A stretch of 64,000 nt of DNA from NCBI GenBank assembly GCA_963730915.1, contig CAVSTR010000003.1, positions 192,729 to 256,728 on the forward strand. The letters are read 5' to 3'. Shown here piece by piece: positions 24,171-55,141 of the stretch. The notes under the pieces are model-generated. The model made no database searches. It had not been told where the DNA came from and was given only the letters and a program-made list of their open reading frames with translations. This stretch comes from an uncultured Gemmatimonadales bacterium (GTDB taxonomy: Bacteria > Gemmatimonadota > Gemmatimonadetes > Gemmatimonadales > GWC2-71-9). Made by a program: the position numbers and the translations under genes. The first letter of the stretch is position 1. Every line of letters starts with the position of its first letter.

Positions 24171-25247
24171 ATGGTCAGCTCACCCGCAACAGCCATCGCA
24201 GCACCCAATCTCCTCAACCTGACCCCAGGCGAAGCCCGTTCCGTGGTCGAGCGATGGGTAGGGCAACGCGGTGTGCCGGGGTATCGGGCGGGCCAGATTC
24301 ATCGCCGCCTGTGGCAAGCCCCGGTGGAGAGCTGGGCGGGCGCCACGGACCTGCCATCAAGCCTGCGGGTGGAGCTCGAGCAAGCGTTTCCTCTCGAGCG
24401 CCTGACTCCGGACGTTATCCAGCAGTCAGCCGATGGAACCCGCAAATATCTGTGGCGGCTGAGGGACGGAGAGGCGATCGAGTCGGTGCTCATTCCCTCG
24501 GGATCCCGACGCACACTGTGCATCTCGTCCCAGGCAGGCTGCGCGCTGAGGTGCTCCTTCTGCGCCACCGGCCGAATGGGTTTTCGGAGGAACCTGACTC
24601 CATTCGAGATCGCCGGGCAAATCCGGGAAATCGTGCTCACCAATCCGGAGGAGAAGCCCACCAACATCGTGTTCATGGGCATGGGCGAGCCGCTCCTGAA
24701 TTGGCCCGCGGTGGACACCGTCCTGACGATCCTGAACAGTCCTGAAGGATTCGGCATCGGGGCGCGGCACATCACCGTCTCGACCGTCGGCATTCTGCCT
24801 GGCATGGCCGAGTTTGCCAAGCGGCCGGAACAGTTCCGTCTCGCCATCTCGCTGCACGCCCCCACTTCCGAGCAGCGTCTGACGATGATGCCGATCGAAA
24901 AAAAGTACGACCTGGCATCCGTGCTCAGCGCGGCGACGGCATTTCGGAAGCGAATCACGTTCGAGTACGTGATGATCGAGGGCTTCAACGACAGCGATGC
25001 CGACGCGGCGCAGTTGGCGAAGCTGGCCCGGCGAGCAGGCGCGCTCGTGAACATCCTGCCACTGCATCCGGGCGGCGCCCCCGAGCTGACACCCACCGCG
25101 GTGGCGCGGATCCGTGCGTTCAGCGATCGATTGCGGAACTATGGAGTGGAGGCGGTGGTCCGCCGAAGCCGGGGCCTGGACATCAACGCGGCGTGCGGTC
25201 AGCTGAAGGTGGAAGTAGAGAAGAAGAGGGCTCGCGAAACAGCGTAA
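24171..25247 (+). CDS. rlmN: Dual-specificity rRNA/tRNA methyltransferase RlmN
   Basis: CISSQAGCALRCSFCATG, VFMGMGEPL and DINAACGQL. Confidence 0.96.
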   Translation: MVSSPATAIAAPNLLNLTPGEARSVVERWVGQRGVPGYRAGQIHRRLWQAPVESWAGATDLPSSLRVELEQAFPLERLTPDVIQQSADGTRKYLWRLRDGEAIESVLIPSGSRRTLCISSQAGCALRCSFCATGRMGFRRNLTPFEIAGQIREIVLTNPEEKPTNIVFMGMGEPLLNWPAVDTVLTILNSPEGFGIGARHITVSTVGILPGMAEFAKRPEQFRLAISLHAPTSEQRLTMMPIEKKYDLASVLSAATAFRKRITFEYVMIEGFNDSDADAAQLAKLARRAGALVNILPLHPGGAPELTPTAVARIRAFSDRLRNYGVEAVVRRSRGLDINAACGQLKVEVEKKRARETA

Positions 25248-25340
25248 ACAGTAAACAGAAACAGTAAACGGACTGCAGGAAAGAATTCTTTTGGGAGTCG
25301 TAGACCCTGTTCACTGTTTACCGTTAACCCGTTCACGTTT
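25244..25340. repeat. Heptamer tandem repeats in inverted arrangement (GTAAACA x4 ... CYGTTYA x4) between convergent rlmN and ppc
   Basis: gtaaaca gtaaaca gaaaca gtaaacg ... ctgttca ctgttta ccgttaa cccgttca. Confidence 0.8.
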
Positions 25341-25343
25341 GTC

Positions 25344-28130
25344 CTATCCCGTCGCCCCGAAGCCCGCCGCAATACAGTTGATCGAAAGCAGGAGCGCAGA
25401 GAGCTGCTCTTCCTGCGTCTTGTCCCCGCCCGACTCACGAAAGCGCCGAAGCAGCTCGATCTGCTGGCGACTCACCTGGTTGATCGTCGGCAGCCGACGC
25501 GCCAACCGCCTCCGAAAGCGTGGATAGCGCTCCACCAGCTCCTTACCGCCGCTGATGCGCAGCACCGCTTCAACCGTACGCTGATACTCCTCTTCAATCA
25601 TTCCGAGTACGCCGGCCCGGATACGGGCGTCGGGAACGAGGTCCGCATATTCCCGCGCGATGTCCAGGTCCACGTAGGTAAGTGTCTTCTCAACCTCATC
25701 CACGATAAGGCGAAAGAGTCGTGACTCGGCGAACATCCTGTCCAGGAGCGCGCTGCCTCGCTGGCCTCTGACCTGAAGGAAGGTGAGAATGCCGCTGCCA
25801 ACGCCGTACCATCCGGGGATGAAGTGCCGATTCTGGGACCACGCAAACACCCACGGGATTGCCCGCAGATCGCTCAGCGACCGGGCCCCGAACCGGCGTG
25901 CCGGACGCGAGCCCATGTTAAGCAGAGAGATCTCTTCCAGCGGACTGGCCGCCTGGTAGTAGGCCAGGAGGTCGGGATGGTCCACCAGCTGCCGGTACGA
26001 AGCCTGCGCCGCACCGGAGAGCGCTTCCATTGCCTCGTCGAATTCCGCCGTTGGTGACAGGGCCTTCTCCCGCTCGGACTTGAGGGAGTGCTCCACCACG
26101 CTGGCGGCGAGCAACTCGATCTGATACTGGGCCGTACCACGATTGGCGTATTTGAACGACACCACCTCACCCTGCTCCGTGATCCGCATGCGACCATTGA
26201 TGGACCCGGCGGGCTGCGCTGCGATCGCCCGGCCAGTGGGCGCGCCTCCGCGGCTTACCGAACCGCCCCGACCGTGAAAGAACGCAATCGGCACACCGCT
26301 CTCCTTGCCTACGCGCGTCAGCTTGATCTGGGCTTTGCTCAACTCCCAATTGGACGTCAGGAACCCGCCGTCCTTGTTGGAGTCCGAGTACCCGATCATC
26401 ACTTCCTGCACGCCGCCCTGGGCCCTAACACTGCGTCGGACCAGCGGCACCGCCAACAGCTCCTTCATGATGGCGGGAGCTCGCTGCAAGTCTTCGATGG
26501 TCTCGAACAGCGGTACGATCGGGAGGGTGGAGGTCTCCACGCCGGCGGTGTCGCCGAATAGTCCGGCGGTTTTGGCCATGAGGTACGCGCCCAGAATATC
26601 GCTCACGCTGCGCGTCATGCTGAGGACGAAGGCGCCGAAGGCTTCTCGATCCACCTCATCGCGAAGCTGACGTACCAGCTGAAACATTCCCAGCGTTTCT
26701 GCCGACTCCGGCGGCAGTTCCGGGTCCGCCTGTCCGGGAGCCAGCGGTCTCGCCAGCTCGGCACCGACCCATTGGCGCCATGCTTCTGATTGTTGCTCGG
26801 GGGCTTGTCCGTCGGGCCCGTCTGTCCGCACGTCCGGCCGCCCACAGGTCCGCCAGTGCGGCATTGAGTTTCGTAGTGTTCTCGCGCACGTCCAGACGCA
26901 CGGTCTGAAAATCGGAACGACTCGACCTCGCGTCGGACCGGACGCACCAGCGTCTGGCGCCAGTGAGATGCTGCCGCCGAATCCCAGGGCCTCTTCGATC
27001 GCCCGCAAATCCGTGATCAGCGCCTCGGCCGAGGCATAGCCCGCCGGGTCAGGTGCCGTTCGCCCCTCTTCCGACTTTGCGATCATGACATCGAGACGGC
27101 GGCCCATGCAGGCGAGATACTGGCGGAAAATTTCGCCCGGGTTGCGGGCCGCGATTTCCTCGCCCTCCCCGGTGGCGGCAAGCTCCTTAGCCAGCGACTG
27201 CCGAAAACTTTCCGGAACCGGAACCGCGCGCTCGGTGATGCTCAACGCGCGTACCAGCTCGGAGAGTCTCCGGCGATACCGGCGCAGAGCGGTGAGACGG
27301 TTCTCCAGTATCGTGCTTCTGGTCACTTCGTTGGTGACGAAGGGATTGCCGTCCCGGTCGCCCCCGACCCACGACCCAAATTGAAAGAAGGGAGGTACCT
27401 GGATGGTTCGGTCGGGGTACGCGTGTGACAGCGCTCGCTCGAGCTTGTCGAGCAAGTCCGGCACCGCTTCGAACAGCGTCTCGTTGAAGAAGTGCAGTCC
27501 CCAGAAGACCTCCTGCGGGACCGTCGGCTTGACGAGACGGAGCTCGCCGGTGGTCCAGAGCAGCTCGATCTCGTTTCGGAGACCATCCACCAGTGCCTGC
27601 CGTTCCCGCGGTGTCCACCGGGGCGACTCCAAATCCACCAGCCGGCGATACACGCGGCGGTGCTTTTCGAGCACAGTGACACGGCGCGCTTCGGTCGGGT
27701 GAGCGGTGATCACAGGCCGGATACGCAGCACGCCGAGCAGCTCGGCCATCTCCTGCGAGGAGACACCCGCCGCGGCCGCACCGGTGATCACCTGGGCAAA
27801 AGTGCCGCGGAGCTGATCATAGCCACGCTCGATTTCCACCTGCCGACGGCGCCGCATGGCCGCGTTTTGCTCCGCGATGCTCAGGAGCTGGAACCAGATT
27901 CCCTGAACCTGAAGCGTACGGGCGAGAAGCTCGGGGCTCAGGCTCGCGGCGTTGCGCTCACCGCGCAGGACCGACTCCACCTCCGGCTGCCGTTCCCTCA
28001 CCAGCTCGAGAAGGAGGCCGGAGAGCAGCTCGACGACTTCCTGGGCATACGCCGCAGCACTCGCCGCAGCCGGATCGGCCGACTCCGGCAGCATCTCCGC
28101 TGAGAACGGCTCGAGCGCTGTGTGCGTCAT
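25344..28130 (-). CDS. ppc: Phosphoenolpyruvate carboxylase (compensating frameshifts about 26830-26950)
   Basis: VITAHPTE, SWVGGDRDGNP, VMIGYSDSNKDGG, FHGRGGSVSRGG and LRAIPWVFAW. RLDVREN is displaced into another frame. Confidence 0.95.
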   Translation of the reverse strand: MTHTALEPFSAEMLPESADPAAASAAAYAQEVVELLSGLLLELVRERQPEVESVLRGERNAASLSPELLARTLQVQGIWFQLLSIAEQNAAMRRRRQVEIERGYDQLRGTFAQVITGAAAAGVSSQEMAELLGVLRIRPVITAHPTEARRVTVLEKHRRVYRRLVDLESPRWTPRERQALVDGLRNEIELLWTTGELRLVKPTVPQEVFWGLHFFNETLFEAVPDLLDKLERALSHAYPDRTIQVPPFFQFGSWVGGDRDGNPFVTNEVTRSTILENRLTALRRYRRRLSELVRALSITERAVPVPESFRQSLAKELAATGEGEEIAARNPGEIFRQYLACMGRRLDVMIAKSEEGRTAPDPAGYASAEALITDLRAIEEALGFGGSISLAPDAGASGPTRGRVVPIFRPCVWTCARTLRNSMPHWRTCGRPDVRTDGPDGQAPEQQSEAWRQWVGAELARPLAPGQADPELPPESAETLGMFQLVRQLRDEVDREAFGAFVLSMTRSVSDILGAYLMAKTAGLFGDTAGVETSTLPIVPLFETIEDLQRAPAIMKELLAVPLVRRSVRAQGGVQEVMIGYSDSNKDGGFLTSNWELSKAQIKLTRVGKESGVPIAFFHGRGGSVSRGGAPTGRAIAAQPAGSINGRMRITEQGEVVSFKYANRGTAQYQIELLAASVVEHSLKSEREKALSPTAEFDEAMEALSGAAQASYRQLVDHPDLLAYYQAASPLEEISLLNMGSRPARRFGARSLSDLRAIPWVFAWSQNRHFIPGWYGVGSGILTFLQVRGQRGSALLDRMFAESRLFRLIVDEVEKTLTYVDLDIAREYADLVPDARIRAGVLGMIEEEYQRTVEAVLRISGGKELVERYPRFRRRLARRLPTINQVSRQQIELLRRFRESGGDKTQEEQLSALLLSINCIAAGFGATG

Positions 28131-29103
28131 ACTACGCGGTCACGGAGGGGAGCGCCGCTGAAAAAGAGCTGCAGATTTTCCAGTGCTCGCATCCCCATTG
28201 CCACGCGGGTTTCCTTGGTGGCACTTCCCAGGTGGGGGAGCAGAACCACGTTTTCCATCTTCAACAAGGCGGGCGATACCTTTGGCTCCTGCTCGTACAC
28301 ATCCAGCCCGGCCCCGGCAATGGTTCCGTCCGCCAACGCTTCCACCAGCGCCCCTTCATCCACGACATCGCCGCGCGCGGTGTTGATGAGGTATGCGCTC
28401 CGGCGCATTCGGGCGAGCCGCTCTCGATTCATCAGGTGCCGAGTCTCGGGAGTGGCCGGACAGTGAAGCGAAATGAAGTCAGCCTCCTCGAGTACCTGCT
28501 CCAGCGAACTTCTCGGCTCTGCGCCGAGGGAAGCCGCTTCCGAGGGTGAGGGCGGATAGGGATCGTGAAAGATGACGCGCATGCCGAAGCCGTGATGAGC
28601 CCGCCTGTGCCGCGGCCCTTGCGATCCGCCCCATGCCGATGAGTCCCAGCACCTTTCCACTGACCTGAGAGCCAAGCATGTGGGTGGGGCGCCACCCGGT
28701 CCATGCCCCACTTCGCACGTGCCGCTCCCCTTCCCCGGTCCGGCGGCTGACCATGAGCAGGAGCGTGATCGCGATATCGGCGGTGGCTTCGGTGAGGACG
28801 TCAGGTGTATTGGAGACGGCGAGTCCGTGTTCCTGGGCCGCCTGAGTATCGATGTGGTTGAAGCCAACCCCGAAGTTGGCGAGGATCTTCGCCCGGCGAG
28901 GCTTCGCGCTGAGAACCTCGGCGTTGATGCGGTCGGTTACCGTGCAGAGCAACGCATCGGCACTCCGCAGAGCTTCCTTCAGCCCGTCCGGTCCGAGCGG
29001 CTTGTCCTCGGTATTCAGGCGCGCGTCAAAGTCGCGACTCAGCGCCTCTTCCACCGTGTCGGGAAGGCGCCGAGTCACCACGACGCTGTGGCCGCGAGCT
29101 CAC
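28127..29103 (-). CDS. Hydroxypyruvate/glyoxylate reductase (D-2-hydroxyacid dehydrogenase), frameshifted
   Basis: GVGFNHID, NTPDVLTEATAD and GMGRIA in one frame; LINTARG.VVDE, GLDVYEQEP and LPHLGSAT in another. Confidence 0.88.
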
Positions 29104-30014
29104 TTCGCTACAGCCTTCTTGCGCGAGGGCTTCTTGGACAACGCGGCCGCAATAGTCGACCCAAGCTCCGCAGGGCTCGGCGCTACCGTGAGCCCGGCCG
29201 AACGCATGATTTCAGCCTTCTCCGCGGCAGTGTCGCCGAATGCCGAGATGATCGCGCCCGCGTGGCCCATCCGGCGCCCCTTGGGCGCGGTCAATCCGGC
29301 CACATAGCCGATGACTGGCTTGCTCATGTTTTCCTTCACGAAGAGCGCCGCCTCGGCTTCCTGCGGTCCGCCGATCTCGCCGATCATCATCACAGCCTGC
29401 GTCTCCGGATCTTCCTCGAACAGCTTCAGCATGTCGACGAAGGAACTACCGTTGATAGGATCGCCTCCGATGCCCACGCTGGTAGTCTGGCCGATGCCCA
29501 GGGCGTTCATCTGCGCCGCGGCTTCATACCCCAGTGTCCCCGACCGGCTCACCACACCGACCGACCCACGGGAATAGATGTGCCCCGGCATGATGCCGAG
29601 CATTGCCTTACCGGCGCTGATGATGCCGGCGCAGTTCGGGCCTATCAACGTGGTGCGCCGCTCCTTGGGAAACCGGAAGAGATAACGCTTGACCATCATC
29701 ATGTCCTGCGCCGGGATGCCGTCGGTGATGGTGCAGACGAGGCGGATCCCTGCATTGGCGGATTCCATGATCGAGTCAGCGCAGAACGCTGCCGGCACGA
29801 AGATGATGCTTGCCTCCGCGCCCACCTCGCGCACCGCCTCCTTGACCGTGTTGAACACCGGCCGGTCTAAATGTCGTGTGCCGCCTTTACCTGGAGTGAC
29901 ACCGCCAACCACGTTGGTGCCGTAGGCGATCATCTCTCGGGCATGAAAGGTTGCCTTTTCGCCGGTAAAGCCCTGGACGATGACACGCGTCCGCTCGTCG
30001 ATCAAGATGCTCAT
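29100..30014 (-). CDS. mtkB: Malate--CoA ligase (malate thiokinase) alpha subunit
   Basis: SucD fold with [21 protein letters not shown] and [10 protein letters not shown], as I recall for methylotroph MtkB. Lies in the cluster with mcl/sga/ppc. Confidence 0.88.
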
Positions 30015-31213
30015 GGTGCACCATTCCCTGATGCGGAAGACTGGGCGCGCGAGCTCTTCAGCGCACCGACGACACGTTCGGCGGCTTCCGAGAGCGATCC
30101 CGCCGTGATAATCGGAAGACCGCTGTCTCGGATGATCCGCTGTCCTTCCTCGACATTGGTGCCGGCAAGACGAACCACGAGGGGCACCTTCATCTGGATG
30201 TCTCGAGCGGCCTGCACCACACCCTGAGCAACCCAGTCGCAGCGATTGATGCCGGCGAAGATGTTCACCAGGATGGCGCCGACCTTCCCGTCCGACAGTA
30301 CCAGCCGGAACGCTGCCGCAACCCGCTCGGGCGAGGCGCCGCCGCCGACATCGAGGAAGTTTGCCGGCTGACCGCCGGCATGCTTGATCATGTCCATGGT
30401 CGCCATGGCAAGTCCGGCCCCGTTGATTATGCAGCCGATGTCACCATCGAGACCGACGTAATTCAGTCCATGCTCGGCTGCCTGAGCCTCCCGTGGATCC
30501 TCCTCCGCGTAATCTCTCAGCTCGCTGACGTTCGGCCGCCGGAACATGGCGTTGTCGTCGAATGTCATCTTGCAATCGAGCGCGAGCACCTGCCCATCCG
30601 CGGTAACGACCAGAGGATTGATCTCGACCATCGTGGCATCGAGGTCGCGAAAGGCACGATAGGCTCCCAGCAGAGTCGTCACCGCACGGCTCACCTGTGC
30701 CGGCGCGAGACCGAGGCCGTACGCGATCTCTCGAGCCTGGAACGAGCTCATTCCGATCGCCGGCTCGACCGATTCCCGAAGGATTGAGTTCGGAGCGCTC
30801 CGGGCGATCTCCTCGATCTCCATTCCGCCTTGAGGATGTGCCACGATCATGATGCGCTCCGTCTTCCGGTCCAGTACCAGACCGAGGTACAGCTCACGCT
30901 CGATGGGGACCGCTGCCTCCACATAGAGCCGATGCACCACCCTGCCCTCCGGCCCGGTCTGATGGGTGACCAGGCGCTTGCCGAGGAGGTTCTTCGCCGC
31001 GGCACGCACCTCATCCTCGCTGGAGCAGAGCTTGATGCCGCCGGCCTTGCCCCGCGCACCAGAGTGGATCTGAGCCTTCACCGCCCAGCGGGCACCGCCG
31101 ATCTCGGTGGCACGATAGACCGCCTGCTCAGGGCTGTAGGCGACCCCCCCGCGCGGAATGGCAACGCCGAAGCCCGCGAGCAGCTCCTTCGCCTGATATT
31201 CGTGGATGTCCAT
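30011..31213 (-). CDS. mtkA: Malate--CoA ligase beta subunit
   Basis: [41 protein letters not shown] and [17 protein letters not shown] (MtkA-type rather than SucC GGIVRCD). Confidence 0.88.
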
Positions 31214-31221
31214 AGTCTTTC

Positions 31222-31365
31222 CGGGGATCGAGGATCAGAGATCGTGCGGTCTAGAGTCTACAGTCTAGAGCCTGGGTGGTGGTCAACTTCGGGCCCTGGT
31301 CTCAGACTTTGACTCTGGACTCTTGACCCTTGACCCTGGACTCCTCACCCTCGACCCTCGACATC
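31222..31365. repeat. Heptamer tandem repeats, inverted arrangement, overlapping the mcl 3' end
   Basis: gtctaga gtctaca gtctaga ... gactctg gactctt gaccctt gaccctg gactcct caccctc gaccctc. Confidence 0.8.
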
Positions 31366-32297
31366 TTTCCAATCGCTTTATCCGTATCCACCACATTCTG
31401 CGCCATCCTTGCGGAGGCCGCATCGATCATCCGGCCATCTAGCTGAGCCGCCCCGCGCCCTTCACGAGCAGCCTGCTCGAGCGCATCCAAAATGCGGCGG
31501 GCGCGCTCGACCTCTTTCGGAGGTGGGGTAAAGACCTCGTTTGCCAGCGCGATCTGGGACGGATGAATGGCCCACTTTCCCTCGATTCCCAGCGCGGCGC
31601 CTCGACGCGCGGCGAGTGTAAAGCCATCGGGATCCTTGAAGTCTCCGAATGGCCCATCGATCGCACGCAGTCCGTACGCTCGACATGCTACCACCATTCG
31701 CGACAAGGCTGCGTGCCACTGGTCGCCCGGATAATCGGGGTTGAGTCCACCGATGTTGACGGTCCGCGCGCGACAGCTGGCTGCATAATCGGCCACCCCG
31801 AAGTGCATGGCTTCGAGGCGGCGGCTGGACTGCGCGATGGCTTCCACGTTGGCCATGCCCAACGCCGTCTCGATCAGCACATCGATGCCGATCCGGTGGG
31901 GAATCCCGCGCGCTTCCTCGATCTGCGTCAGCAAGGCATCGACGAGGTACACATCTGCCGGCACGCCCACCTTCGGGATGAGCACCGTGTCCAGCCGATG
32001 TCCCGCCTGCTCGACCACGTCCACTACATCGCGGTACATGTAATGGGTATCGATGCCGTTGATCCGGACGCAGATAGTCTTGCCGCGCTCTCGCCAATCG
32101 TTCTCCAGCAGCGCAGCGATGACATTGGTCCGGGCCTGCTCCTTGTCGCCTGGCGCAACCGCGTCTTCCAGATCGAGGAAGATGTAGTCGGCCTCACTTT
32201 CCAGCGCTTTGCTGAACATGCCCGGTTGCGATCCCGGCACCGCCAACTCACTCCGCTGGAGGCGCGGCCGAGCGGGTTCGTAACGCGTATGGCTCAT
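31302..32297 (-). CDS. mcl: Malyl-CoA lyase (HpcH/CitE family)
   Basis: RLQRSELAVPGS, FLDLEDAVAP, RINGIDTHYMYRDVVD, IDGPFGDF and GKWAIHPSQI. Confidence 0.9.
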   Translation of the reverse strand: MSHTRYEPARPRLQRSELAVPGSQPGMFSKALESEADYIFLDLEDAVAPGDKEQARTNVIAALLENDWRERGKTICVRINGIDTHYMYRDVVDVVEQAGHRLDTVLIPKVGVPADVYLVDALLTQIEEARGIPHRIGIDVLIETALGMANVEAIAQSSRRLEAMHFGVADYAASCRARTVNIGGLNPDYPGDQWHAALSRMVVACRAYGLRAIDGPFGDFKDPDGFTLAARRGAALGIEGKWAIHPSQIALANEVFTPPPKEVERARRILDALEQAAREGRGAAQLDGRMIDAASARMAQNVVDTDKAIGKMSRVEGEESRVKGQESRVKV

Positions 32298-33556
32298 CGG
32301 CCGGCGCCCGCGGTGGCCTTTTCCTTGGTACCGGATTGAACCGGCTGACTGTCAGGCGCGCGCGGAGGTAGCTCGCGCTTGTGCAGGGGAGCCGCCGTGC
32401 TCCGCCAGTATTCCCCAGCCGCCGCGACGCCACTTCCCGGCGTGATCTTCATGCCGACATCACGCATCGCCATCTCGGAACCGGCAATGGCCCCCATCAA
32501 CATCAGCTCGTTCATGTCGCCAAGATGTCCGATGCGGAACAGCTTTCCTGCCATCCGCGCGAGCCCCGCGCCCAGCGCCAGGTTGTAGCGGCGGTAGGCG
32601 ACATCGATCACTTCGGCGCCGTTCACTCCGGGCGGTACCATGATGGCGCTCACCGTATCCGAGTGCCACTTCGGAGCTCGGGCGCAGAGCTCCAGGCCCC
32701 ACGCCTGCACCGCTCGGCGCGTGCCTTCCGCCAGGCGATGATGGCGGGTGAAAACATTCTCCAGTCCTTCTTCCATGAGCATGGCGATGGACTCTCGGAG
32801 ACCATACAACAAGGGAAGTGAAGGCGTATAGGGGAAATACCCGGTGGCATTCGCCTTCTGCATGTCCGTGAAATCGAAGAACACTCGACGGAGCTTGGCA
32901 TTTTCGCCGAGCGCGAGCGCCTTCTGGCTGGCGGCGACGATGCCGAGGCCGGCGGGAAGCATGAGCCCCTTCTGCGAGCCGGTGATCGCGAGGTCCACAC
33001 CCCACTCGTCCATGCGGAAATCGATGCTTCCGATCGAGCTGACTCCGTCGACCATAAGCAGCGCCGGATGCCTGGCGTCGTTGAGTACGCGCCGCATGGG
33101 GGCGACGTCCGAGGTGACGCCGGTAGCGGTTTCGTTGTGCGTGAACAGCACCGCCTTGATGGCATGGCTCTTATCGGCTTCGAGCGCTTCTTGGTATCGC
33201 TCGATCGGCGCGCCTTCACCCCACTCCGCCTCGATCACTTCGACCTGGAGCCCGAGGCGCTGGGCCATATCGATCCAGAGGTGGCTGAACATGCCGAAGC
33301 GCGACGCGAGGACCTTGTCGCCGGGCGACAGCGTGTTCGACAGTGCAGCTTCCCATGCACCGGTACCGCTCGATGGAAAGATGAATGCCTGGCCCGAGGC
33401 CGTCTTGAAGATCTTCTTCAGGCTCTCGAGCACCGGCGCGGCGAGCGACGGGAAGTCGGACGATCTGTGGTCCTCCATGGCCCGGTGCATCGCGCGGAGA
33501 ACGCGGTCGGGAACGTTGGTGGGCCCAGGTACGAAGAGAAAGTTGCGGCCGGCCAT
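32294..33556 (-). CDS. sgaA: Serine--glyoxylate aminotransferase
   Basis: GRNFLFVPGPTNVPDRV, EDHRS, FSHLWIDMAQRLGL, HNETATGVTS, GSQKGLM and GYFPYTP. Confidence 0.93.
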   Translation of the reverse strand: MAGRNFLFVPGPTNVPDRVLRAMHRAMEDHRSSDFPSLAAPVLESLKKIFKTASGQAFIFPSSGTGAWEAALSNTLSPGDKVLASRFGMFSHLWIDMAQRLGLQVEVIEAEWGEGAPIERYQEALEADKSHAIKAVLFTHNETATGVTSDVAPMRRVLNDARHPALLMVDGVSSIGSIDFRMDEWGVDLAITGSQKGLMLPAGLGIVAASQKALALGENAKLRRVFFDFTDMQKANATGYFPYTPSLPLLYGLRESIAMLMEEGLENVFTRHHRLAEGTRRAVQAWGLELCARAPKWHSDTVSAIMVPPGVNGAEVIDVAYRRYNLALGAGLARMAGKLFRIGHLGDMNELMLMGAIAGSEMAMRDVGMKITPGSGVAAAGEYWRSTAAPLHKRELPPRAPDSQPVQSGTKEKATAGAGR

Positions 33557-33635
33557 CTGGGGACCTCGACTTTTTGAAGAAGGCGACTGACCTTAAAGCG
33601 CCCGAATTCGAGCACGGGCCACCATTTTTAACACT

Positions 33636-33653
33636 TTGTGAACTTTTTCACAA
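33636..33653. promoter_or_regulatory. Rex operator TTGTGAA-cttt-TTCACAA
   Basis: Exact match to the established Rex consensus TTGTGAA-N4-TTCACAA, between divergent sgaA and gck. Confidence 0.8.
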
Positions 33654-33662
33654 GAGGCCGGG

Positions 33663-35010
33663 TTGAGCTCTTCCGCTGCTTTGCCCGCCACCCGTGACCT
33701 GCTCCTGGACCTTTACCGGACGGCCACGCGGCTGCCGCACCGGGTCCAGCGCTGGAGGCCCGCCTCCGGCGCCTTCCAGACGATGAGCCCGGTCGCCGGA
33801 TCTGGATCTTCGCGCTGGGTAAGGCGGCAGTGCCCATGGCGACCACCGCGGTTGAGGTCCTGCAATCCCAGGCAGACCGGCTGACCGGGGGCCTCATCGT
33901 GGCACCCGACGGGAGCGCCAGCCCCGACCCGCGCCTCACTCTCATTCTGGGTGACCACCCCGAGCCTGGTGCTCGCTCGATCGCCGCAGCCAAGGCTCTG
34001 GCCGATACGGCGTCCCAGGTTGGCTCCGGGGACGAGGTCTGGGTGCTGCTCTCGGGTGGTACCACCAGCCTGATCGGAGCTCCCGAGACCGGCCTCACAC
34101 CTGCAGACCTGAGGAACCTCTACGCGCTCTTGCTGGGCTCTGGTCTCGACATCACCGCCATGAATCAGATCAGAAAGCGCTTTTCCCGGTGGGGAGCAGG
34201 AAAGCTCGCCCGCGCGCTCCACCCTGCCCTGGTCCGGGTCTACATCGTCTCCGACGTTATCGGCGATGACCTTGCGTCCATCGGCTCCGGACCCTGTGTC
34301 CCCGATCCGACCACTGCCGTTCGACATCCACGACCTGCTCTACGCGCGCCGGGCTCTGGCCCAAAATTCCAGAGGCGGCACGCCGTATGATCCTGTCAAT
34401 GGAGTCGGGGGAAACGGCTGAAACGCCAAAGCCGGGAGATCGGGCTTTCGCGCGAGTGACCCTCGAACTGGTTGCCAGTAACAGGCTGGCCCTCGAAGCT
34501 GCGGCCAAGCGTGCGGCTGAGTTGGGCCTTGCTCCTGATGTCGTGGAGGTGCCGCTCGCCGGGGAGGCGGTTACGGCAGGAGCAAGTGTAGCCGACAGTC
34601 TTCTCAATAATTGCGTTCGACTGTCGATCCCGCAACCAACGAAGCGGCCACTCTGCCGAATTTGGGGTGGGGAGACAACGGTCAGCCTGGGCGATCACCC
34701 GACTGGACTGGGAGGGCGATCACAGGAGCTCGCGCTTGCTGCAGCTCGTACGCTCTCCGGCCGGCCTGGCGTCACGTTATTGGCAGCGGGTACAGACGGT
34801 CGCGATGGTCCGACCGATGCTGCCGGCGCCATCGTGGACGGGACCACCTGGACGGCCATCTCGACCGCCGGGCGCAGCCCCGAACACGATCTCGTCCGGC
34901 ATGATGCCTACCCGGCTCTGGCTTCAGTGGGAGCACTGGTGAAACCGGGACTCACCGGTACCAACGTCATGGATATTGTGATTGGGATCTGCGGGTACAA
35001 TCAGGGATGA
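33663..35010 (+). CDS. gck: Glycerate 2-kinase (DUF4147 + MOFRL), frameshifted near 33727 and 34320-34390
   Basis: ALGKAAVPM, GDHPEP, LLSGGTTSL, SDVIGDDLASIGSGP, GGETTV, GGRSQELAL, GTDGRDGPTDAAGA and TGTNVMD across three frames. Confidence 0.88.
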
Positions 35011-35459
35011 ATTCCGAGGCGGGGACGGAAATCCTCTCCCAGGATGACGCTCACATCGACGCGCCGAAAGGTGTCGGTCTCCACGAGAATTTTTCCGGTG
35101 CGGAGCACAGCGGCCACAGTTCGTGCCCTGTCGGGATCCCCCCGTCGGACGATCACTCGAGTCAGGTCCGACGCTGAATCTGCATTTCCGAGAAAGACGA
35201 CGTCCACCCCGTGTGATCGCAGCATCCTGGTGGCGGTTCGGGCGGCTCCCTGTTTTCGAGTGCCGTTCAGGACTTCCACCATGAGACGGCCTTGCACCGG
35301 CGGAATGGCGAAAGCATGATCGGCTTTGACCGGGCGCGCGCCCCGGCGGAGAAAGCCGGTCACTGCTACCAGAACGAGGACCCCCGCGATCAGCGAGAGC
35401 CAGATCCAGCGGCGACCAAGCTGTTCCAGAATCGCACGGTAGGATCGAGAATCGGCCAT
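35001..35459 (-). CDS. LytR C-terminal domain membrane protein
   Basis: TM helix, then VEVLNGT...GAA, GNA and DVSVILGEDF. Start uncertain. Confidence 0.85.
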   Translation of the reverse strand: MADSRSYRAILEQLGRRWIWLSLIAGVLVLVAVTGFLRRGARPVKADHAFAIPPVQGRLMVEVLNGTRKQGAARTATRMLRSHGVDVVFLGNADSASDLTRVIVRRGDPDRARTVAAVLRTGKILVETDTFRRVDVSVILGEDFRPRLGIHP

Positions 35460-35965
35460 CCAGACTTGATCAGGTGGAGGATCCGGGAGCGGGCAACCTC
35501 ACGCAGCACGCCTCCGGGGTCCGTGGGTAGGCGCTCGGCCAGCGCGCGACGTACTTCACGATCGAACGGCCGGTCGGGGTCGAGAAAATCCGCACAGAAG
35601 AGTATTCGTCCCACCATGTCCCATTCAGCGAGACCAACCGAGTGATAGCGGACTGCGTCGAGCACTCCGCGGTCGATCTCTCCTTCTGCTTTTGCATGGG
35701 CTGCACTCGCAGGTCCATGCCAGAGTGACGGCGGGCCAGGCGTGCTGGCCGCCCACTTCGCGAGTTCCTCGGGCGGCGCATCGCGCAGCGCATCGTGGAG
35801 CCAGACAGCACGCAGCCAGCGATTTCGCTCTGAGTCCGGCACTCCCATCTGTTCGGCCCACCCGGCTGCCAGCTCGGCCACTCGTTGGATGTGCTCGAGT
35901 CTTGCCGGCGTGACGATGGCCCAGTCGGGGAGCGTCGGTCGCAGCCCTGGAGGCGTGCGCGTCAA
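35390..35965 (-). CDS. HD-domain hydrolase, YqeK (Ap4A hydrolase)-like
   Basis: RLEHIQRV, LHDA, WHGPASA, AVRYHS and CADFLDP.R. Confidence 0.8.
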   Translation of the reverse strand: MTRTPPGLRPTLPDWAIVTPARLEHIQRVAELAAGWAEQMGVPDSERNRWLRAVWLHDALRDAPPEELAKWAASTPGPPSLWHGPASAAHAKAEGEIDRGVLDAVRYHSVGLAEWDMVGRILFCADFLDPDRPFDREVRRALAERLPTDPGGVLREVARSRILHLIKSGWPILDPTVRFWNSLVAAGSGSR

Positions 35966-37692: not shown

Positions 37693-38161
37693 CGGGGTTC
37701 AGTTCCGCCAGCTCTCGCCGCCAGAAGTCACGAGTGGACAGCCCGGGATGGGGAATGATAAGGTCTGGGTCACGAACGTGCCGGGTACCGAACTTTACGA
37801 TATCGAGATCAAGGGTCCTGGAGCCCCACCTCTCCGCGCGCTCGCGGCCCGCAGCCAGCTCGATTGCCTGACACGCCTCGAGCAGCGCGTGCGGTTCGAG
37901 ACCGGTCTCGAGCAGCACCATTTGATTCAGGTAGGGAGGCTGTTCCTTGCCGCCGAGTGGGGCGGTCTCTTCGATGGACGATGCGGCGAGCAGGCGGGTC
38001 CGGGGCAGTGAGGCGAGAGCAGCTCGGGCTTTCTCGAGGTGGGCCGCACGGTTCCCCAGATTGCTGCCCAGCGCAACGTAAACCCGTTCGGGAGCGGCGC
38101 GGTCACCCTTCGACGGCAAAGTGACTCGCAATCCGCTGCAGGTCGGCCGCCAGGCTTCCAA
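37682..38161 (-). CDS. folK: HPPK (start uncertain, probably about 38105)
   Basis: [26 protein letters not shown] and LIIPHP. Confidence 0.93.
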
Positions 38162-40184
38162 GCTCGCGAATGGCTCGCTCCAGGTCTGCCTGTCCTGACG
38201 CGGCCTCGCCGGCTCGCTTGGCCAGGCTGTCGGTGTCGACTCTGCTGCGGGCGGAGCTTGCTGCCACCTGCTCGATCTGTCCGGTCAGATTGTTGACCGC
38301 GTCGCGCTGCTGGGCGGCGGTGGCGGCGATCGCCTTGGCGAACCCGCCGGCTTCGCCGGTGGTGCCGACGATGTCGTCCAGAGCCCGGGCAGCGTTCGCG
38401 CTGAGCTCCTCCACGCCCGCCACCACGTCACGGCCCCGCTCCATTTGGCCAGATACCGCCGACACCTGCGTGGTGATTTCGCCGAGGAGATTCCCTGCTT
38501 CGCGGGCCGCATGAAGACTCTGGGCAGCGAGATCCCGCACTTCGGAGGCAACGACGGCGAACCCTCTGCCCTCGCGGCCGGCGCGTGCCGCCTCGATCGC
38601 GGCATTCAGCGCAATCAGGTTTGTAAGGTCCGCGATCTCGCGAATCGTGCCGATGAACCCGGTGATCCGCTGGGTCAGCGCGCCGAGGGCGGCCACCCGG
38701 TCTGCACCCACCGCCACGAAGCCTTTCAGCTCGACCAGCCGGTCGATTGCGTCCCCGATGACCACGCGGTTCCGGGACGCCACGTGCGCAGCCGTTCCGC
38801 TTGCATTTGCGGCCTGTGCACCTTGAGTCATCATTTCCTGTGTGGCACTGGCTAACGATCCGGTGGCTCGTAATCCACCGGTAGCGAACCGTTCCAGCTC
38901 CACCGCGCCTTGGCGCATCCCCAGCGAGACATCGGCCAGCGCGGTCGCGGACGCGCGAAGGGAATCGGCGACGCGGGCCAGTGCGGTCACCTGCTCACCG
39001 ATCTGACTGACGGTGAGCACGAGCGGCCGCCGCAGCTCGGAGATATGGAAGGCGGTTGCGATCTGTCCCGCGAGCGTGCTCATGGCGAGCAGATCCTTGG
39101 GCCCGTATGCATGGCGCTTGTGATGTTCCACTTCCAGGGTTCCCAGGATCTCGTCGCCGAATTTGATCGGATGGATCACCAGCATGCTCACGTCGGTAAG
39201 CCCATCGCCCAGTCGCTCGTCCCGCGCCACGTCCCGGACGATCACCGGCTCCCGAGACTCGACTGCTTCACGTCGAAGGGGCTCCAGCTCCGCCGGAGGT
39301 TGGTTTCGTTTGTCGCGGCCGATCTTGCTGCGGTAGGCCAAGGATGCCTTCGAGCCATTCACGCGATACACCCGGAAATCGCCCCAGTCCAGCAGTCGGA
39401 AGGCAAGCCGCTCGATCTGGCCGAACGATCCCTGGAGCGTAGCATTGCTCGCGATAGTGGCCTCCATCAGGTGGACCTTGTTCAGGTCCTCCGCCCCGAT
39501 GGCCTCGTCCAGGATTTGTCTTGCCATGAGCCCCACGACACCCAGCGCGAGCGCGGCGGCAACCCACCCGATGGGAGCCAGGTTGGTGAGGGCCCAGACG
39601 ACAAAGGTCGAGGCACCCAGCGTCAGCAGGTACGAGCTGATCTCCCAGCGGAGGATGAGAATCTTCTCAGCGCTTTCCAGTTTGTTGCGAATCAGCAGGC
39701 TGAAATAGAATAGGGCCCGGCTGATGAAGAAGTAGAGCGCGGCCAGGATTGCGACCGCAGGAAGAAAGTCGACGGTCACCTCGCTCCTCTCGGTGAGCGC
39801 GAGAATTCCAGCGTAGGGACCGAAGGCAGCGACGAACGAGATCGCTTCGCGTCCGGCATTGACAATTCCGGCTCTCGGCTGCTTGCGCAGCCAGAACACG
39901 TCGGCTCCTACCACCCCCACCCACAATCCGGCGACGACCGGGCCGGGTCCGATGCTGATGGCGCCCACGAGCGTCGGGATGGCCGACTGGGTCAGATAGG
40001 AGTACTTGCTGAGCCTCACCGGCACAGAGCGAAGAACGAGAATGCTCAGCATCAGCACGATCGTGGAGATCGGCTGATGGATCCAGCGTTGATCCCATAG
40101 CAGTACAGCCACCGTCAGCAGAGATCCACCGACCCAGAGAACGTTGGTGTAGTGCCGCAGCAAAGCCGGGATCCGGATCGTCAT
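38103..40184 (-). CDS. Methyl-accepting chemotaxis protein with polytopic TM region and GAF domain
   Basis: Starts MTIRIP (ATG 40184), followed by about 7 TMs, a GAF domain (PVIVRDV..DER...[15 protein letters not shown]) and [30 protein letters not shown]. Confidence 0.9.
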
Positions 40185-40973
40185 TGTGCGTCCGGGTTGT
40201 CGAGAGCATCCCGAAGCGAGCCCAGGAAGCGGCGCGCCGCACGCACGCCATGCTGGCCCAGGATATCCACCAACGCACTTCCCACCACCACCCCGTCGGC
40301 CATCTGGCCCACTGTCCGGGCTTGCTGGGGAGTGGAAATGCCGAATCCGACAGCGACAGGTAGCGAAGTGGCCGCGCGAACCCGGCGAATCGACTCTTCG
40401 AGGTCGCATCGCGAGAGCGCCTCTGGCACCCGTGACACCGAGACGCGCAACGAGGTAGACGAACCCCTGGGCATCGTCAACCGACCGCTGGAGTCGGTCG
40501 GCGCGAGTCGTAGGAGCGACCAGACGCACGAGATCGATACCACTTCGCTGTATCGTCGACTCGAGCGCGGGATCTCCGCCTGCCGGCAGATCCGTGAGGA
40601 TGAGACCTGCTATCTGGAGCTGTTCCGCGTCATGCAGGAATCGATCGATCCCATACTGGAGAATCGGATTGAGATAGCTGAAGATCACGACCGGGGAGGC
40701 CGGCTGCGTGCTGGAGATGAGCTCCAGCGTACCGGCAAGGGTCATCCCCGCACGGAGGGCCTCGAAGGTGGATCGCTGGATGGTGGGGCCGTCGGCGAGG
40801 GGATCGCTGAAGGGAACTCCGACTTCGATGATATCCGCCACCTCGGCAGACGACCGTAGTGCATCGGCGCTGGCTTGCAGGCTGGGGTAGCCGGCAGTGA
40901 GATACGGGATCAGGGCCTTGCGGCCTGAGGCTTTGAGTGTGGCCCACCCCGGCGCGAGCCGGGATTCAGACAA
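40181..40973 (-). CDS. trpA: Tryptophan synthase alpha chain (frameshift near 40410)
   Basis: [26 protein letters not shown] and GVTGAR. The tail [10 protein letters not shown]...[11 protein letters not shown] is in ORF 40181-40543. Confidence 0.95.
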
Positions 40974-46929: not shown

Positions 46930-47964
46930 TCACCCCCGAGGAGCGGCCGCTCGCAGTTTGCTCAGTACCTGAGCCGCCGCTCCGGTGTCGAGGCTGGCAG
47001 TCGCGCGAGCTGCGGCTTGCTCGAACGACCAGTCATTCGCCGATATGTAGAGCGCGGCCGCTGCATTCAGCAGCACTGCGCAGCGCGCCACAGCCGAGTC
47101 CTCTCCCTCCAGCAATCGCTCTATGCGCACTGCATTCTGCGCTGGATCACCCCCGGCCAGGCCCTGGAGATTCGGGCAGTCCAAACCGTAAGTGGCCGGG
47201 TCCAGCTCCCATCTCGCCACGTTACCGTCTTCCACTTCCCAGACCAGGGTCGAGTCCACGGGGCTGATTTCGTCCATGCCCACCGAGCCATGAACCACCA
47301 GCGCATGCCTGGTACCCAGAACGGAGAGCGCAGTCGCGATCAGCTCGGCCCGTGAACGGTCCGATACCCCGACCACCTGCCGTAGCACCCCAGCCGGATT
47401 CGCGAGCGGTCCCAACATGTTCATGATGGTGGGGACCCCGAGCTCTTTACGCACCGGTGCCACGTGGCGCATGGCCGGGTGATACCTCGGCGCGAACAGG
47501 AAGGTGATTCCTGTGGCCGCTAGTACCCGCGCTGCGGTTGCGGGGTCGAGATCGATATTGATACCCAAAGCCTCCAATACATCCGCGGAACCGCACTTCG
47601 ACGTGTAACTGCGGTTTCCGTGTTTGGCCACAGAGACACCGGCACCTGCGGCGACGAACGCAGCAGCGGTCGAAACGTTGAGGGTTCCGATCAGCCCGCC
47701 ACCGGTTCCACAGGTGTCCACCAGCAGGTCGGGATCGAGGGTTTCCAGCCTGGTCATGGCACAGCGAAGCGCAAGCGCAGCGCCGGCAACTTCATCCGCG
47801 GTCTCACCCTTGGATCGAAGACCCATCAGCAGCGCCGCGATTTGGACCGGCGATGCCTCTCCTCGCATGATGGTGCCGAACGCCGCCACACTGCTCTCAC
47901 GGTCGAGCGATGTGCCGCTTGCGAGCTGCTGAATAGCCTGAGCCAGCGCGGCGACGGGGGTCAC
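46930..47964 (-). CDS. trpD: Anthranilate phosphoribosyltransferase
   Basis: DTCGTGG, NVSTAA, KHGNRS.TSKCGSAD and LGPLANP. Confidence 0.96.
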   Translation of the reverse strand: MTPVAALAQAIQQLASGTSLDRESSVAAFGTIMRGEASPVQIAALLMGLRSKGETADEVAGAALALRCAMTRLETLDPDLLVDTCGTGGGLIGTLNVSTAAAFVAAGAGVSVAKHGNRSYTSKCGSADVLEALGINIDLDPATAARVLAATGITFLFAPRYHPAMRHVAPVRKELGVPTIMNMLGPLANPAGVLRQVVGVSDRSRAELIATALSVLGTRHALVVHGSVGMDEISPVDSTLVWEVEDGNVARWELDPATYGLDCPNLQGLAGGDPAQNAVRIERLLEGEDSAVARCAVLLNAAAALYISANDWSFEQAAARATASLDTGAAAQVLSKLRAAAPRG

Positions 47965-48050: not shown

Positions 48051-48102
48051 GGATTTGCGTAGCTTGCCCGAGGCCCTCATTCGCCGCTAGATTCCGGACC
48101 AG

Positions 48103-48903
48103 ATGAGCCGGACCTTCCTCGCTACGCTCCAGTACGATGGCACCGGCTTTGTCGGTTGGCAGCGCCAACCCGCCGGTCGCTCGGTTCAGGGTGAATTCGA
48201 GCGGGTTCTGGAGCGTCTGTTCGCTCGCCCAACCGTCGTCCATGCCGCCGGCCGTACCGATGCAGGGGTGCACGCCATCGGGCAGGGTGTCAGCTTCAGC
48301 GCTCCGACAGATTGGAGCCACTCCGCACTTCATCGTGCATTGAACGCGCTCCTTCCGCGCGACTGTTGGGTCGCTTCCGTCTATCCGATGCATACGGGCT
48401 TTCACGCTCGCAAGTCGGCGCTTTCGCGGCGATATCGCTACGACATCGGCCTGGATGACGAGGCCGCCTCTCCGTTTCGCTCCCGGTATGAATGGGCACT
48501 TTGCCGTCCGGTAGAGACGGAGCTGCTTCATGCGGCGGCCAAGATCATCAACGGAGAGCACGACTTCCGCGGCTTTGCCGCCAAGACCGACAAGCTTCAC
48601 TACCGTTGCCGCATCCTCTCAGCGAAGTGGATACCGCGGGGCGGCGAGCGGGGTCTCAGCTTCTTCATCGAAGCGGACCGCTTCCTTCAGCGCATGGTAC
48701 GGATGTTGGTCGGAACGATGGTCGACATCGGCCTCATGCGTCGGCCGCTCAGCGATATGGCCGAGCTGCTCGAGAGTCACCACAACCAGAACACCAGCTC
48801 CCCCGCTCCCGGGCAGGGACTCTACTTTGATTGTGTGGCCTATCCGCCCGAGCTGTTCGCGGAATCAGTCGAGACGCATGCTGCCGCCGCCCCTCACGCG
48901 TAA
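48103..48903 (+). CDS. truA: tRNA pseudouridine(38-40) synthase
   Basis: YDGTGF.GWQ.Q, AGRTDAGVHA, FHAR and FL..MVR..VG. Confidence 0.96.
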   Translation: MSRTFLATLQYDGTGFVGWQRQPAGRSVQGEFERVLERLFARPTVVHAAGRTDAGVHAIGQGVSFSAPTDWSHSALHRALNALLPRDCWVASVYPMHTGFHARKSALSRRYRYDIGLDDEAASPFRSRYEWALCRPVETELLHAAAKIINGEHDFRGFAAKTDKLHYRCRILSAKWIPRGGERGLSFFIEADRFLQRMVRMLVGTMVDIGLMRRPLSDMAELLESHHNQNTSSPAPGQGLYFDCVAYPPELFAESVETHAAAAPHA

Positions 48904-54434: not shown

Positions 54435-55141
54435 GCCGTGTTGCGGTGGTGCGTTTCCCCGGTAGCAATTGCGATTTCGATGCCCTCCGGGCGGCCGAAA
54501 ACGTCGGAGCGGATGCGTACTTTGTCTGGCACCGTGACACCGATCTGAACAACGCGGACGTGGTCATTCTCCCGGGCGGGTTCAGCTATGGCGATTACCT
54601 TCGCGCCGGCGCGATTGCAAGGTTCAGCCCGGTCATGCAGGCGGTGCAGCGCCACGCCGCCTCCGGAGGGCCGGTACTCGGCATCTGCAACGGATTTCAG
54701 ATCCTGTGCGAGGCTCACTTGCTGCCAGGCGCCCTCATGCGGAATGCCGGGCTTTCGTTCGTCTCCAAGCCGGTGGACGTAATCGTGGAGCGAACCGACA
54801 CTGCATTCACTTGTGATTATGAGCCTAATTCCAGGCTGCGGATTCCGGTGGCACACGGGGAAGGCCGTTACGTAGCAGAACCAGAGACGCTGCGCATGCT
54901 GGAAGCCGAGGGGCGAGTCGTGCTGCGCTACGTCGCGGCCACCGAGCGGTCGCCATTCCAGCCTAATCCAAATGGGTCAACCAATCACATCGCGGGGATC
55001 TGTAATGCCGACGGTAACGTGGTCGGCATCATGCCCCATCCCGAGCGTGCCGCCGAGCGGCTGCTGGGGCTGACGGGCGGGAGCGGATTCTTCACCTCTC
55101 TGGTTCCCGCATACGAAGAAAGCTCCAACTCAGGAGTCTAG
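54431..55141 (+). CDS. purQ: FGAM synthase subunit PurQ
   Basis: FPGSNCD, PGGFSYGDYLR, GICNGFQIL and MPHPER. Confidence 0.97.
   Translation: MSRVAVVRFPGSNCDFDALRAAENVGADAYFVWHRDTDLNNADVVILPGGFSYGDYLRAGAIARFSPVMQAVQRHAASGGPVLGICNGFQILCEAHLLPGALMRNAGLSFVSKPVDVIVERTDTAFTCDYEPNSRLRIPVAHGEGRYVAEPETLRMLEAEGRVVLRYVAATERSPFQPNPNGSTNHIAGICNADGNVVGIMPHPERAAERLLGLTGGSGFFTSLVPAYEESSNSGV

Follow-up and report, generated by a model that had tools for sequence, protein, structure and literature searches.

The stretch of DNA under study, hereafter the window, comprises 64,000 nucleotides from the genome of an uncultured Gemmatimonadales bacterium. Between positions 25344 and 33556 it carries six minus-strand genes, assigned from their open reading frames (ORFs) and from NCBIfam and Pfam matches. 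In the order of transcription they are a serine-glyoxylate aminotransferase-type gene (sga), a malyl-CoA lyase gene (mcl), the two malate thiokinase genes mtkA and mtkB, a glyoxylate/hydroxypyruvate reductase gene and the phosphoenolpyruvate carboxylase gene ppc. A glycerate 2-kinase gene of the MOFRL/DUF4147 type diverges from them on the plus strand and ends at 35010. An earlier interpretation of the letters alone (the sequence-only reading) had named this gene set, its order and the divergent kinase, all of which the family matches confirm. The cluster would represent the assimilatory core of the serine cycle in a methanol-using soil Gemmatimonadales bacterium, a reading to which we give a probability of roughly 0.7.

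The gene cluster and its enzymes

The identification of the malate thiokinase is central to this reading. The product of mtkA (30011..31213, minus strand, 400 aa), the beta subunit of malate thiokinase (malate-CoA ligase), reaches 708.7 bits on the malate-CoA ligase equivalog NF010647, for a cut-off of 604, versus 542 bits on the SucC equivalog. Separate sucCD genes are located at C5:1259092-1261127 in the same genome, their identity to mtkAB being 43% (SucC) and 51% (SucD), and in the MtkA tree the genome's own SucC forms a 2.4-unit branch outside all MtkA. One could imagine that mtkAB is a second succinyl-CoA synthetase whose neighbourhood is coincidental. Indeed, the sole NCBIfam models matched by MtkB, the alpha (small) subunit (29100..30014, minus strand, 304 aa), are SucD models (439.7 bits), and the solved structures nearest MtkA are SucC chains (423 bits), with no malate thiokinase chain among the matches. 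However, the MtkA score above both the cut-off and the SucC score, the presence of sucCD elsewhere, the long branch between SucC and the MtkA clade, and a linkage to mcl, sga and ppc that is conserved across phyla make this explanation very improbable. MtkB was named from its partner gene and its relatives; it shares 76-80% identity with the partner genes in the Methyloversatilis, Methylibium and Methylocapsa clusters. Because of the model score above cut-off, the separate sucCD and the separation in the tree, MtkAB is predicted to be a malate thiokinase distinct from the succinyl-CoA synthetase of the cell. The grouping of MtkAB with SucCD, which the sequence-only reading had named as part of what would refute it, was thus not found.

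Several of the other enzymes were assigned with the help of solved structures. The mcl product (31302..32297, minus strand, 331 aa, HpcH/CitE-type) has the malyl-CoA/beta-methylmalyl-CoA lyase 5UGR as its best solved relative (419 bits, E 9.6e-125), followed by 4L9Y. The first gene of the cluster, sga (32294..33556, minus strand), encodes a class-V aminotransferase of 420 aa whose best solved relative is the serine-glyoxylate aminotransferase 6PK1 (491 bits). At the other end, the final gene ppc (25344..28130, minus strand) is a single open frame of 928 aa that matches PF00311 with 773 bits and NF000584 with 736.6 bits, below the cut-off of 815. The reductase gene (28127..29081, minus strand), for a GRHPR-type D-2-hydroxyacid dehydrogenase, lies in two frames and matches NF009714. 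Its intact orthologue in a related genome (L032) has archaeal glyoxylate reductases as best solved relatives (5AOV, 6BII and 2DBQ) and reaches 231 bits with the Hyphomicrobium D-glycerate dehydrogenase 1GDH. The earlier remark that this reductase is generic and not obviously HprA is borne out, as the HprA type found beside sga in Beijerinckiaceae and Betaproteobacteria matches its C-terminal half alone (35-46%). The glycerate 2-kinase gene (33690..35010, plus strand, the start being approximate) occupies at least two frames, with PF13660 and PF05161 on separate ORFs. An orthologue of this kinase matches TM1585 and PH0495.

The genes of the cluster are closely packed. Overlaps of 4 nt occur at the sga/mcl, mtkA/mtkB and reductase/ppc junctions, and the remaining two intergenic gaps are of 88 and 18 nt. 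Such tight spacing suggests that the six minus-strand genes probably constitute one transcription unit. The promoters of sga and of the kinase gene are presumably both located in the divergent intergenic region, which the ORF coordinates place at 33557..33690 with an approximate right edge. A promoter scan detected no sigma-70-like site in this region. Over 24900-35600 the scan returned one internal promoter-like site, not above shuffled sequence, and zero terminator-like sites. The whole window gave no Rfam match at gathering thresholds, so no riboswitch was seen.

One-carbon supply and the proposed cycle

A search of the genome for one-carbon (C1) genes, as the sequence-only reading had advised, was fruitful. 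Two pyrroloquinoline quinone (PQQ)-dependent dehydrogenases are over the TIGR03075 cut-off, one with 680 bits (C4:749413-750975) and one with 624 bits (C3:809465-811042), and their best solved relatives are the XoxF enzymes 6OC5 (750 bits) and 4MAE (650 bits). Both contain the Asp-x-Asp signature, in the aligned motifs WDYDG and FDHDG. A further Asp, placed two residues beyond the catalytic one, marks lanthanide-dependent (XoxF) enzymes. Each of the two xoxF genes adjoins a gene for a MoxJ-like binding protein. A tetrahydromethanopterin (H4MPT) island of about 32 kb, C4:745-777 kb, comprises the first xoxF with accessory genes, fae, mch, fhcABCD, an Mpt_N dehydrogenase gene read as mtd and homologues of H4MPT and methanofuran biosynthesis genes. 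Among these, fae, mch, fhcA, fhcC and fhcD are over their cut-offs; fhcB is full-length but scores 260.7 bits versus 327.8. The pqqC gene is also over its cut-off, at C4:140319-140999, and contains one in-frame TGA. The genome further encodes a formate dehydrogenase alpha subunit, ftfL (871 bits), folD and glyA. The lack of any C1-supplying route, the second outcome that could have undone the earlier proposal, is therefore not what the genome presents. A RuBisCO large subunit was searched for in the genome and not found, for a control that was detected in 5 of 14 genomes, and the serine cycle is therefore the sole C1-assimilation route seen. A search for methane monooxygenase (PF02461) gave no match and was uninformative, since its control was also unmatched everywhere. 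With a genome completeness of 93.65%, absences are to be read as "not found".

Besides the MoxJ-like protein, the C4:745000-751500 region encodes a pentapeptide-repeat protein, a beta-propeller protein of the "PQQ-dependent catabolism-associated" kind and a small c-type cytochrome with weak resemblance to a methanol-related one. This XoxF has an open frame of 719 aa, which at the N-terminus extends about 120 aa beyond the crystallised enzymes, and its true start is therefore probably internal. In the C3:806900-811225 region, a cytochrome c oxidase subunit II gene is found two genes on from the second xoxF and its MoxJ-like neighbour, which suggests a dedicated electron path.

From this gene content, we can propose the following flow of carbon. 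Methanol would be oxidised by the periplasmic XoxF-type, lanthanide-dependent dehydrogenases, and the resulting formaldehyde would be converted to formate by the H4MPT pathway (Fae, Mtd, Mch and Fhc). Formate could then be oxidised by formate dehydrogenase, or loaded onto tetrahydrofolate (H4F) by FtfL and converted to methylene-H4F by FolD. GlyA would combine methylene-H4F with glycine to give serine, whose amino group would be transferred by Sga to glyoxylate, yielding hydroxypyruvate and glycine. The reductase would form glycerate from hydroxypyruvate, and the kinase would form 2-phosphoglycerate from glycerate. After enolase, Ppc would fix CO2 to give oxaloacetate. After malate dehydrogenase, MtkAB would activate malate to malyl-CoA, which Mcl would cleave to glyoxylate and acetyl-CoA. 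The presence of a distinct MtkAB together with C1-oxidation and H4F genes in the same genome gives good support to the C1 assimilation that had been proposed, as one of two options beside glyoxylate or glycine assimilation, from the cluster alone. A pyruvate phosphate dikinase gene is located in the window 24 kb from the cluster, amid purine-biosynthesis genes (59177-61843, plus strand), and its product may help to feed phosphoenolpyruvate to Ppc.

Several points weigh against a serine cycle operating here. Regarding the enzymes, MtkB owes its name to its partner and relatives alone, Mcl (PF03328) passes no NCBIfam cut-off and the reductase passes no curated equivalog cut-off. The top NCBIfam model for the aminotransferase is BhcA (aspartate-glyoxylate), with 620.9 bits for a cut-off of 650; as this model scores best, just below its cut-off, serine is a putative amino donor of Sga. 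Regarding the rest of the pathway, the similarity of an FTCD_C protein to Fch is weak (110 bits versus a cut-off of 275), the best match to ccr in the genome is of 119.7 bits versus 378.55, and a 379-aa protein resembling isocitrate lyase (ICL), encoded at C3:421435-422574, has 173 bits versus an ICL cut-off of 562. The reductase and kinase genes are not open frames in the given sequence. Together they hold three to four of the five to six frame-breaking indels found in 36 kb, above an even spread, and the metagenomic contigs without the extra bases belong to relatives of 92-97% identity and not to the same strain. The same cluster is also present in Mesorhizobium, Ensifer, Paraburkholderia and Ruegeria, which are not known as methanol users. 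Finally, the trees were quick searches on the best 80 of 593 or more relatives, rooted with a single long outgroup, and they do not show the direction of a transfer of the cluster.

Some of these points could fit a cluster devoted to two-carbon (C2), glyoxylate, glycolate or glycine metabolism, in which Sga, the reductase and the kinase would drain glyoxylate or serine to phosphoglycerate while MtkAB and Mcl interconvert malate and acetyl-CoA plus glyoxylate. The enzymes of the serine cycle are reversible in principle. The closeness of the aminotransferase to BhcA, the presence of the cluster in non-methylotrophic genera, and the glyoxylate metabolism represented by malate synthase and the ICL-like gene are all in line with this possibility. 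On the other hand, mch is present in 66 of 69 MtkA-positive Gemmatimonadota versus 18 of 332 MtkA-negative ones. XoxF, Fae, Fhc and ftfL are encoded in the genome, where RuBisCO was not found, and the location of ppc within the operon suits a cycle, not a drain. We consider such a C2 function quite improbable, and retain assimilation of C1 units through the serine cycle as the preferred interpretation.

A serine cycle needs its glyoxylate to be regenerated. The search for ethylmalonyl-CoA or icl genes, also advised beforehand, had a mixed result. The ethylmalonyl-CoA route seems to be missing, as ccr was not found, and the genome contains malate synthase and the divergent ICL-like gene. The 379-aa protein matches true isocitrate lyases (E 1e-37) better than methylisocitrate lyases (E 1e-12) and is the best candidate for a conversion of acetyl-CoA to glyoxylate. 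In an even sample of 401 Gemmatimonadota genomes, orthologues with 74-96% identity are present in 52, all in the family of the window's genome, and 45 of these 52 are MtkA-positive. A strict tie of this protein to MtkA was rejected, since 24 of 69 MtkA-positive genomes (genus g15, family f2 and others) are without an orthologue at E <= 1e-90. We put forward as a tentative and rather doubtful idea that the serine cycle of these Gemmatimonadales runs without the ethylmalonyl-CoA pathway and could be closed by this divergent, lineage-restricted enzyme of the isocitrate lyase family. If so, the 24 MtkA-positive genomes without the orthologue would need another route for glyoxylate regeneration.

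Frame breaks in the reductase and kinase genes

The sequence-only reading described the layout of the cluster correctly. It did not remark that the reductase and kinase genes are both frame-broken in this sequence. The N-terminal part of the reductase lies in the ORF 28479-29081 and its C-terminal part in the ORF 28127-28867 (NF009714 positions 7-169 and 164-315, respectively). The gene is 955 nt long here versus 954 nt (951 in L036) in four orthologues, the alignment showing a single gap column, and relative to these orthologues one extra base is present at about 28607/28608. The kinase is divided between the ORFs 33830-34390 and 34387-35010. Its orthologues are encoded in a single frame, with 419 aa in L031 and L032, 412 aa in L035 and 457 aa in L043. 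When aligned to the window, the orthologous proteins stay in one frame as far as 34318 and resume in a second frame at 34342-34345, with extra bases at 34319 and 34344. The N-terminal helix of the L043 kinase aligns in a third frame before about 33725, and an additional shift is probable near 33722-33735.

These extra bases were checked by aligning contigs of four public soil-metagenome runs to the cluster. Five public runs, none of them of RNA, matched the window, each at 0.05-0.10 of words, and the contigs of the four that were aligned belong to relatives and not to the source strain. Base 28607 is absent in both covering contigs (one in X1 and one in X2), and one X5 contig lacks a base at 34319 and another at 34344. 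The extra base at 29088, which is intergenic, is likewise absent from one X2 contig. The extra bases at 28607 and 29088 stand in similar plus-strand contexts, ccgcctGtgccgcgg and gacgctGtggccgcg. This similarity hints at a context-dependent consensus error, for instance at a modified motif.

Breaks are also present in other genes. ORFs of the same genus were compared with the window, 36,233 bases of which were covered by proteins of relatives. A trpA ORF of the same genus, 263 aa long, matches the window in two different frames, the break lying at about 40405-40413. The N-terminus of a trpD-like gene (anthranilate phosphoribosyltransferase) lies in two frames at about 48100-48119 on the minus strand, upstream of the ORF 46930-47964, likely as a result of a single-base error. 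An apparent break near 55100 was rejected, as gene calling had picked an antisense frame. Outside the window, a third PQQ dehydrogenase of the methanol/ethanol family (C5:411663-413155) is split over three frames and is either broken or mis-assembled, and pqqC, as noted above, is interrupted by a TGA. In the nearest relative (L030), the breaks are in other genes, namely panB, panC, sga and mcl. In the trpA locus there is also a 956-aa ORF (38103-40973, minus strand) in which the N-terminal two thirds of TrpA (Pfam positions 2-184 of 259) continue into GAF and MCP-signal domains. Because the trpA of the same genus aligns in two frames, this "fusion" ORF is probably an artefact of the trpA frameshift.

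Two explanations of the breaks can be considered. The module could be decaying in this strain, in which case the reductase and glycerate kinase genes would be true pseudogenes and methanol would be oxidised for energy with no assimilation of C1 units via glycerate. One break in the reductase and two to three in the kinase represent a local excess over the rest of the covered 36 kb, and a class-I glycerate kinase (PF02595) that could act as a substitute was not found in the genome. The contigs without the extra bases, as said above, belong to relatives of the source strain. Against decay, trpA, trpD and a PQQ dehydrogenase are broken as well, the assembly of the nearest relative is broken in different genes, and the intergenic extra base at 29088, with a context like that of 28607, points to systematic consensus error. 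Moreover, the broken genes are 68-89% identical to their orthologues, as their neighbours are, and MtkA is kept in 22 of the 24 genomes of the genus. Considering the intact orthologues, the breaks in trpA and trpD and the different breaks in L030, errors in the consensus of a long-read metagenome assembly are likelier than decay and are the most likely cause of the breaks. The pathway is therefore taken to be intact in the organism. Since the breaks are over-represented in two genes and the contigs compared are those of relatives, a real inactivation keeps some weight in our judgement, as an unlikely alternative. More generally, this case calls for caution, as frame breaks in long-read metagenome assemblies can mimic the decay of a pathway.

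Distribution, history and known systems

To place the cluster among its relatives, MtkA was searched in the species genomes of GTDB. At least 593 relatives exist, and the best 80 of these were used for comparisons and trees. Nine of these 80 are from Gemmatimonadota, with 72-95% identity. The nearest records are metagenome-assembled genomes (MAGs) of Gemmatimonadales and Gemmatimonadaceae that have flanking housekeeping genes in common with the window, in agreement with the placement in Gemmatimonadota that had been proposed from the letters. The full order sga-mcl-mtkA-mtkB-reductase-ppc is present in six of the nine records (L030, L032, L033, L034, L036 and L043), and the other three, L080 among them, are truncated by the end of a contig. 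The divergent kinase is present in L030, L031, L032, L034, L035 and L043. On one side, the cluster of the window is flanked by the housekeeping genes aspS, a PTS-IIA/PtsN-like gene (ptsN) and rlmN, and on the other by a LytR_C gene, panC, panB and folK, with trp and pur genes beyond them. L030-L032 share panB, panC and LytR_C on one side and rlmN, ptsN and aspS on the other. The cluster holds a fixed chromosomal place in related Gemmatimonadales.

Within the phylum, the distribution of the module is narrow. Among the 401 sampled Gemmatimonadota, MtkA is over its cut-off in 69, all in the order of the window's genome, and five more matches are cut by contig ends. Three unpublished genomes are counted in these tallies, G073 (positive with each of the three queries) as well as G170 and G112 (MtkA-negative). 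The genus of the window has MtkA in 22 of 24 genomes, counting G000. With mch over its cut-off in 84 of the 401 genomes, 66 have both genes, 3 have MtkA only, 18 have mch only and 314 have neither. As related genomes are not independent, this co-occurrence is given as a pattern and not as a test.

Quick maximum-likelihood trees (LG+G4, one long outgroup) place the Gemmatimonadota in one group for MtkA (SH-aLRT 84, 82 rows), Mcl (100, 66 rows), Sga (90, 53 rows) and MtkB (72, 69 rows). Two changes are needed in the Ppc tree (37 rows), and a single origin is compatible with its well-supported branches. In the MtkA tree, 21 Pseudomonadota (Beijerinckiaceae, Methyloversatilis, Methylibium and Paraburkholderia) form the sister group of the Gemmatimonadota (99). 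The G+C content over 24-36 kb is 0.62-0.65, versus 0.631-0.633 in the three large contigs of the genome. The sequence-only reading had considered a horizontal acquisition. A recent transfer was rejected in view of the native G+C, the fixed place between housekeeping flanks common to relatives and the single clade across many genera, and any transfer must be old. The narrow occurrence of the module in this phylum as against a wide one in Pseudomonadota, together with the single clade, the native composition and the constant location, suggests that it was probably exchanged once with Pseudomonadota, long ago, and then inherited vertically. The direction of this exchange can only be inferred.

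Methanol from plants and decaying pectin is a large flux of carbon in soil, where Gemmatimonadales are abundant. Where this carbon ends up is decided by their use of methanol, either as fuel alone or also as material for biomass. In the window the assimilatory operon is clean and contiguous, and the genome, which is nearly complete, contains the oxidation genes as well.

The lineage is not as poorly characterised for C1 assimilation as the sequence-only reading had assumed. For soil Gemmatimonadetes genomes, Butterfield et al. (2016, PeerJ 4:e2687, PMC5103831) report, in the part of the paper available to us, an XoxF-type methanol dehydrogenase with PQQ synthesis, the entire H4MPT pathway with biosynthesis genes beside the XoxF dehydrogenase, and a tetrahydrofolate-to-serine route together with a "canonical malate-intermediated serine" pathway. 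According to the same excerpts, each methanol-utilisation pathway in their contig figure had at least one protein in the proteome (PMC5103831). In excerpts of other papers, Gemmatimonadetes are among the classes listed for MAGs with methanol dehydrogenase, which is cited there as the protein of highest abundance in the soil proteome of Butterfield et al. (PMC11264602). The phylum is among those with metagenomic signatures of methylotrophy (PMC8262859), and a Gemmatimonadota methanotroph MAG, "Ca. Methylotropicum kingii", is mentioned (PMC11102522). C1 assimilation via the serine pathway in soil Gemmatimonadota is thus a proposal already made in 2016. As the idea is ten years old, the value of the present analysis is in confirmation and detail. 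The new details are that the operon has a fixed place in the chromosome, that MtkA is confined to one order and travels with the H4MPT pathway (mch), that frame breaks, probably artefacts, are present, and that the ethylmalonyl-CoA route seems to be absent, a divergent ICL-like protein being the candidate in its place. In the library searched, no literature was found on the operon layout, the phylum distribution or the glyoxylate-regeneration gap in Gemmatimonadota.

Comparison with known systems helps to delimit this one. SucCD has the same fold and two-subunit design as MtkAB, from which it is separated here by the curated model and by the genome's own SucCD encoded elsewhere. BhcA, of the beta-hydroxyaspartate cycle, is the top NCBIfam model for the aminotransferase, yet this protein falls below its cut-off. 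The aminotransferase gene neighbours serine-cycle genes and not bhcBCD, for which no genome-wide search was made. The genomes of Butterfield et al. resemble this one in phylum, soil origin, XoxF, H4MPT genes with adjoining biosynthesis genes and serine pathway, as far as the accessible excerpts go. Unlike the present analysis, these excerpts contain no description of sga-mcl-mtkAB-reductase-ppc as a compact operon, of its constant chromosomal place or of how it is distributed within the phylum, and where they name a "glycerate kinase" for Gemmatimonadetes (PMC5103831), the gene found here is of the MOFRL glycerate 2-kinase type.

The clusters of Pseudomonadota methylotrophs, namely Methylocapsa aurea (L055), Methyloversatilis (L040), Methylibium (L054) and Hyphomicrobium (L075/L081), contain the same enzyme set, with identities of 68-77% for MtkA, 67-80% for MtkB, 65-71% for Mcl and 62-71% for Sga, and of 57-62% for Ppc where it is present (L040, L054 and L055). 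In Beijerinckiaceae and Betaproteobacteria, however, the order differs: mtkA-mtkB-ppc-mcl lie together, and the other side carries sga and the gene for an HprA-type reductase. Hyphomicrobium has sga-mcl-mtkA-mtkB in common with the window, without the reductase-ppc tail, and the shorter order sga-mcl-mtkAB is also found in Mesorhizobium and others. The gene order of the window recurs unchanged in eight MAGs labelled Gammaproteobacteria (L044, L050, L061, L064, L069, L072, L074 and L079), which also have the same GRHPR-type reductase, with 58-67% identity. Their MtkA belongs to a clade other than the sister of Gemmatimonadota, and the divergent kinase was not detected beside their clusters with the queries used.

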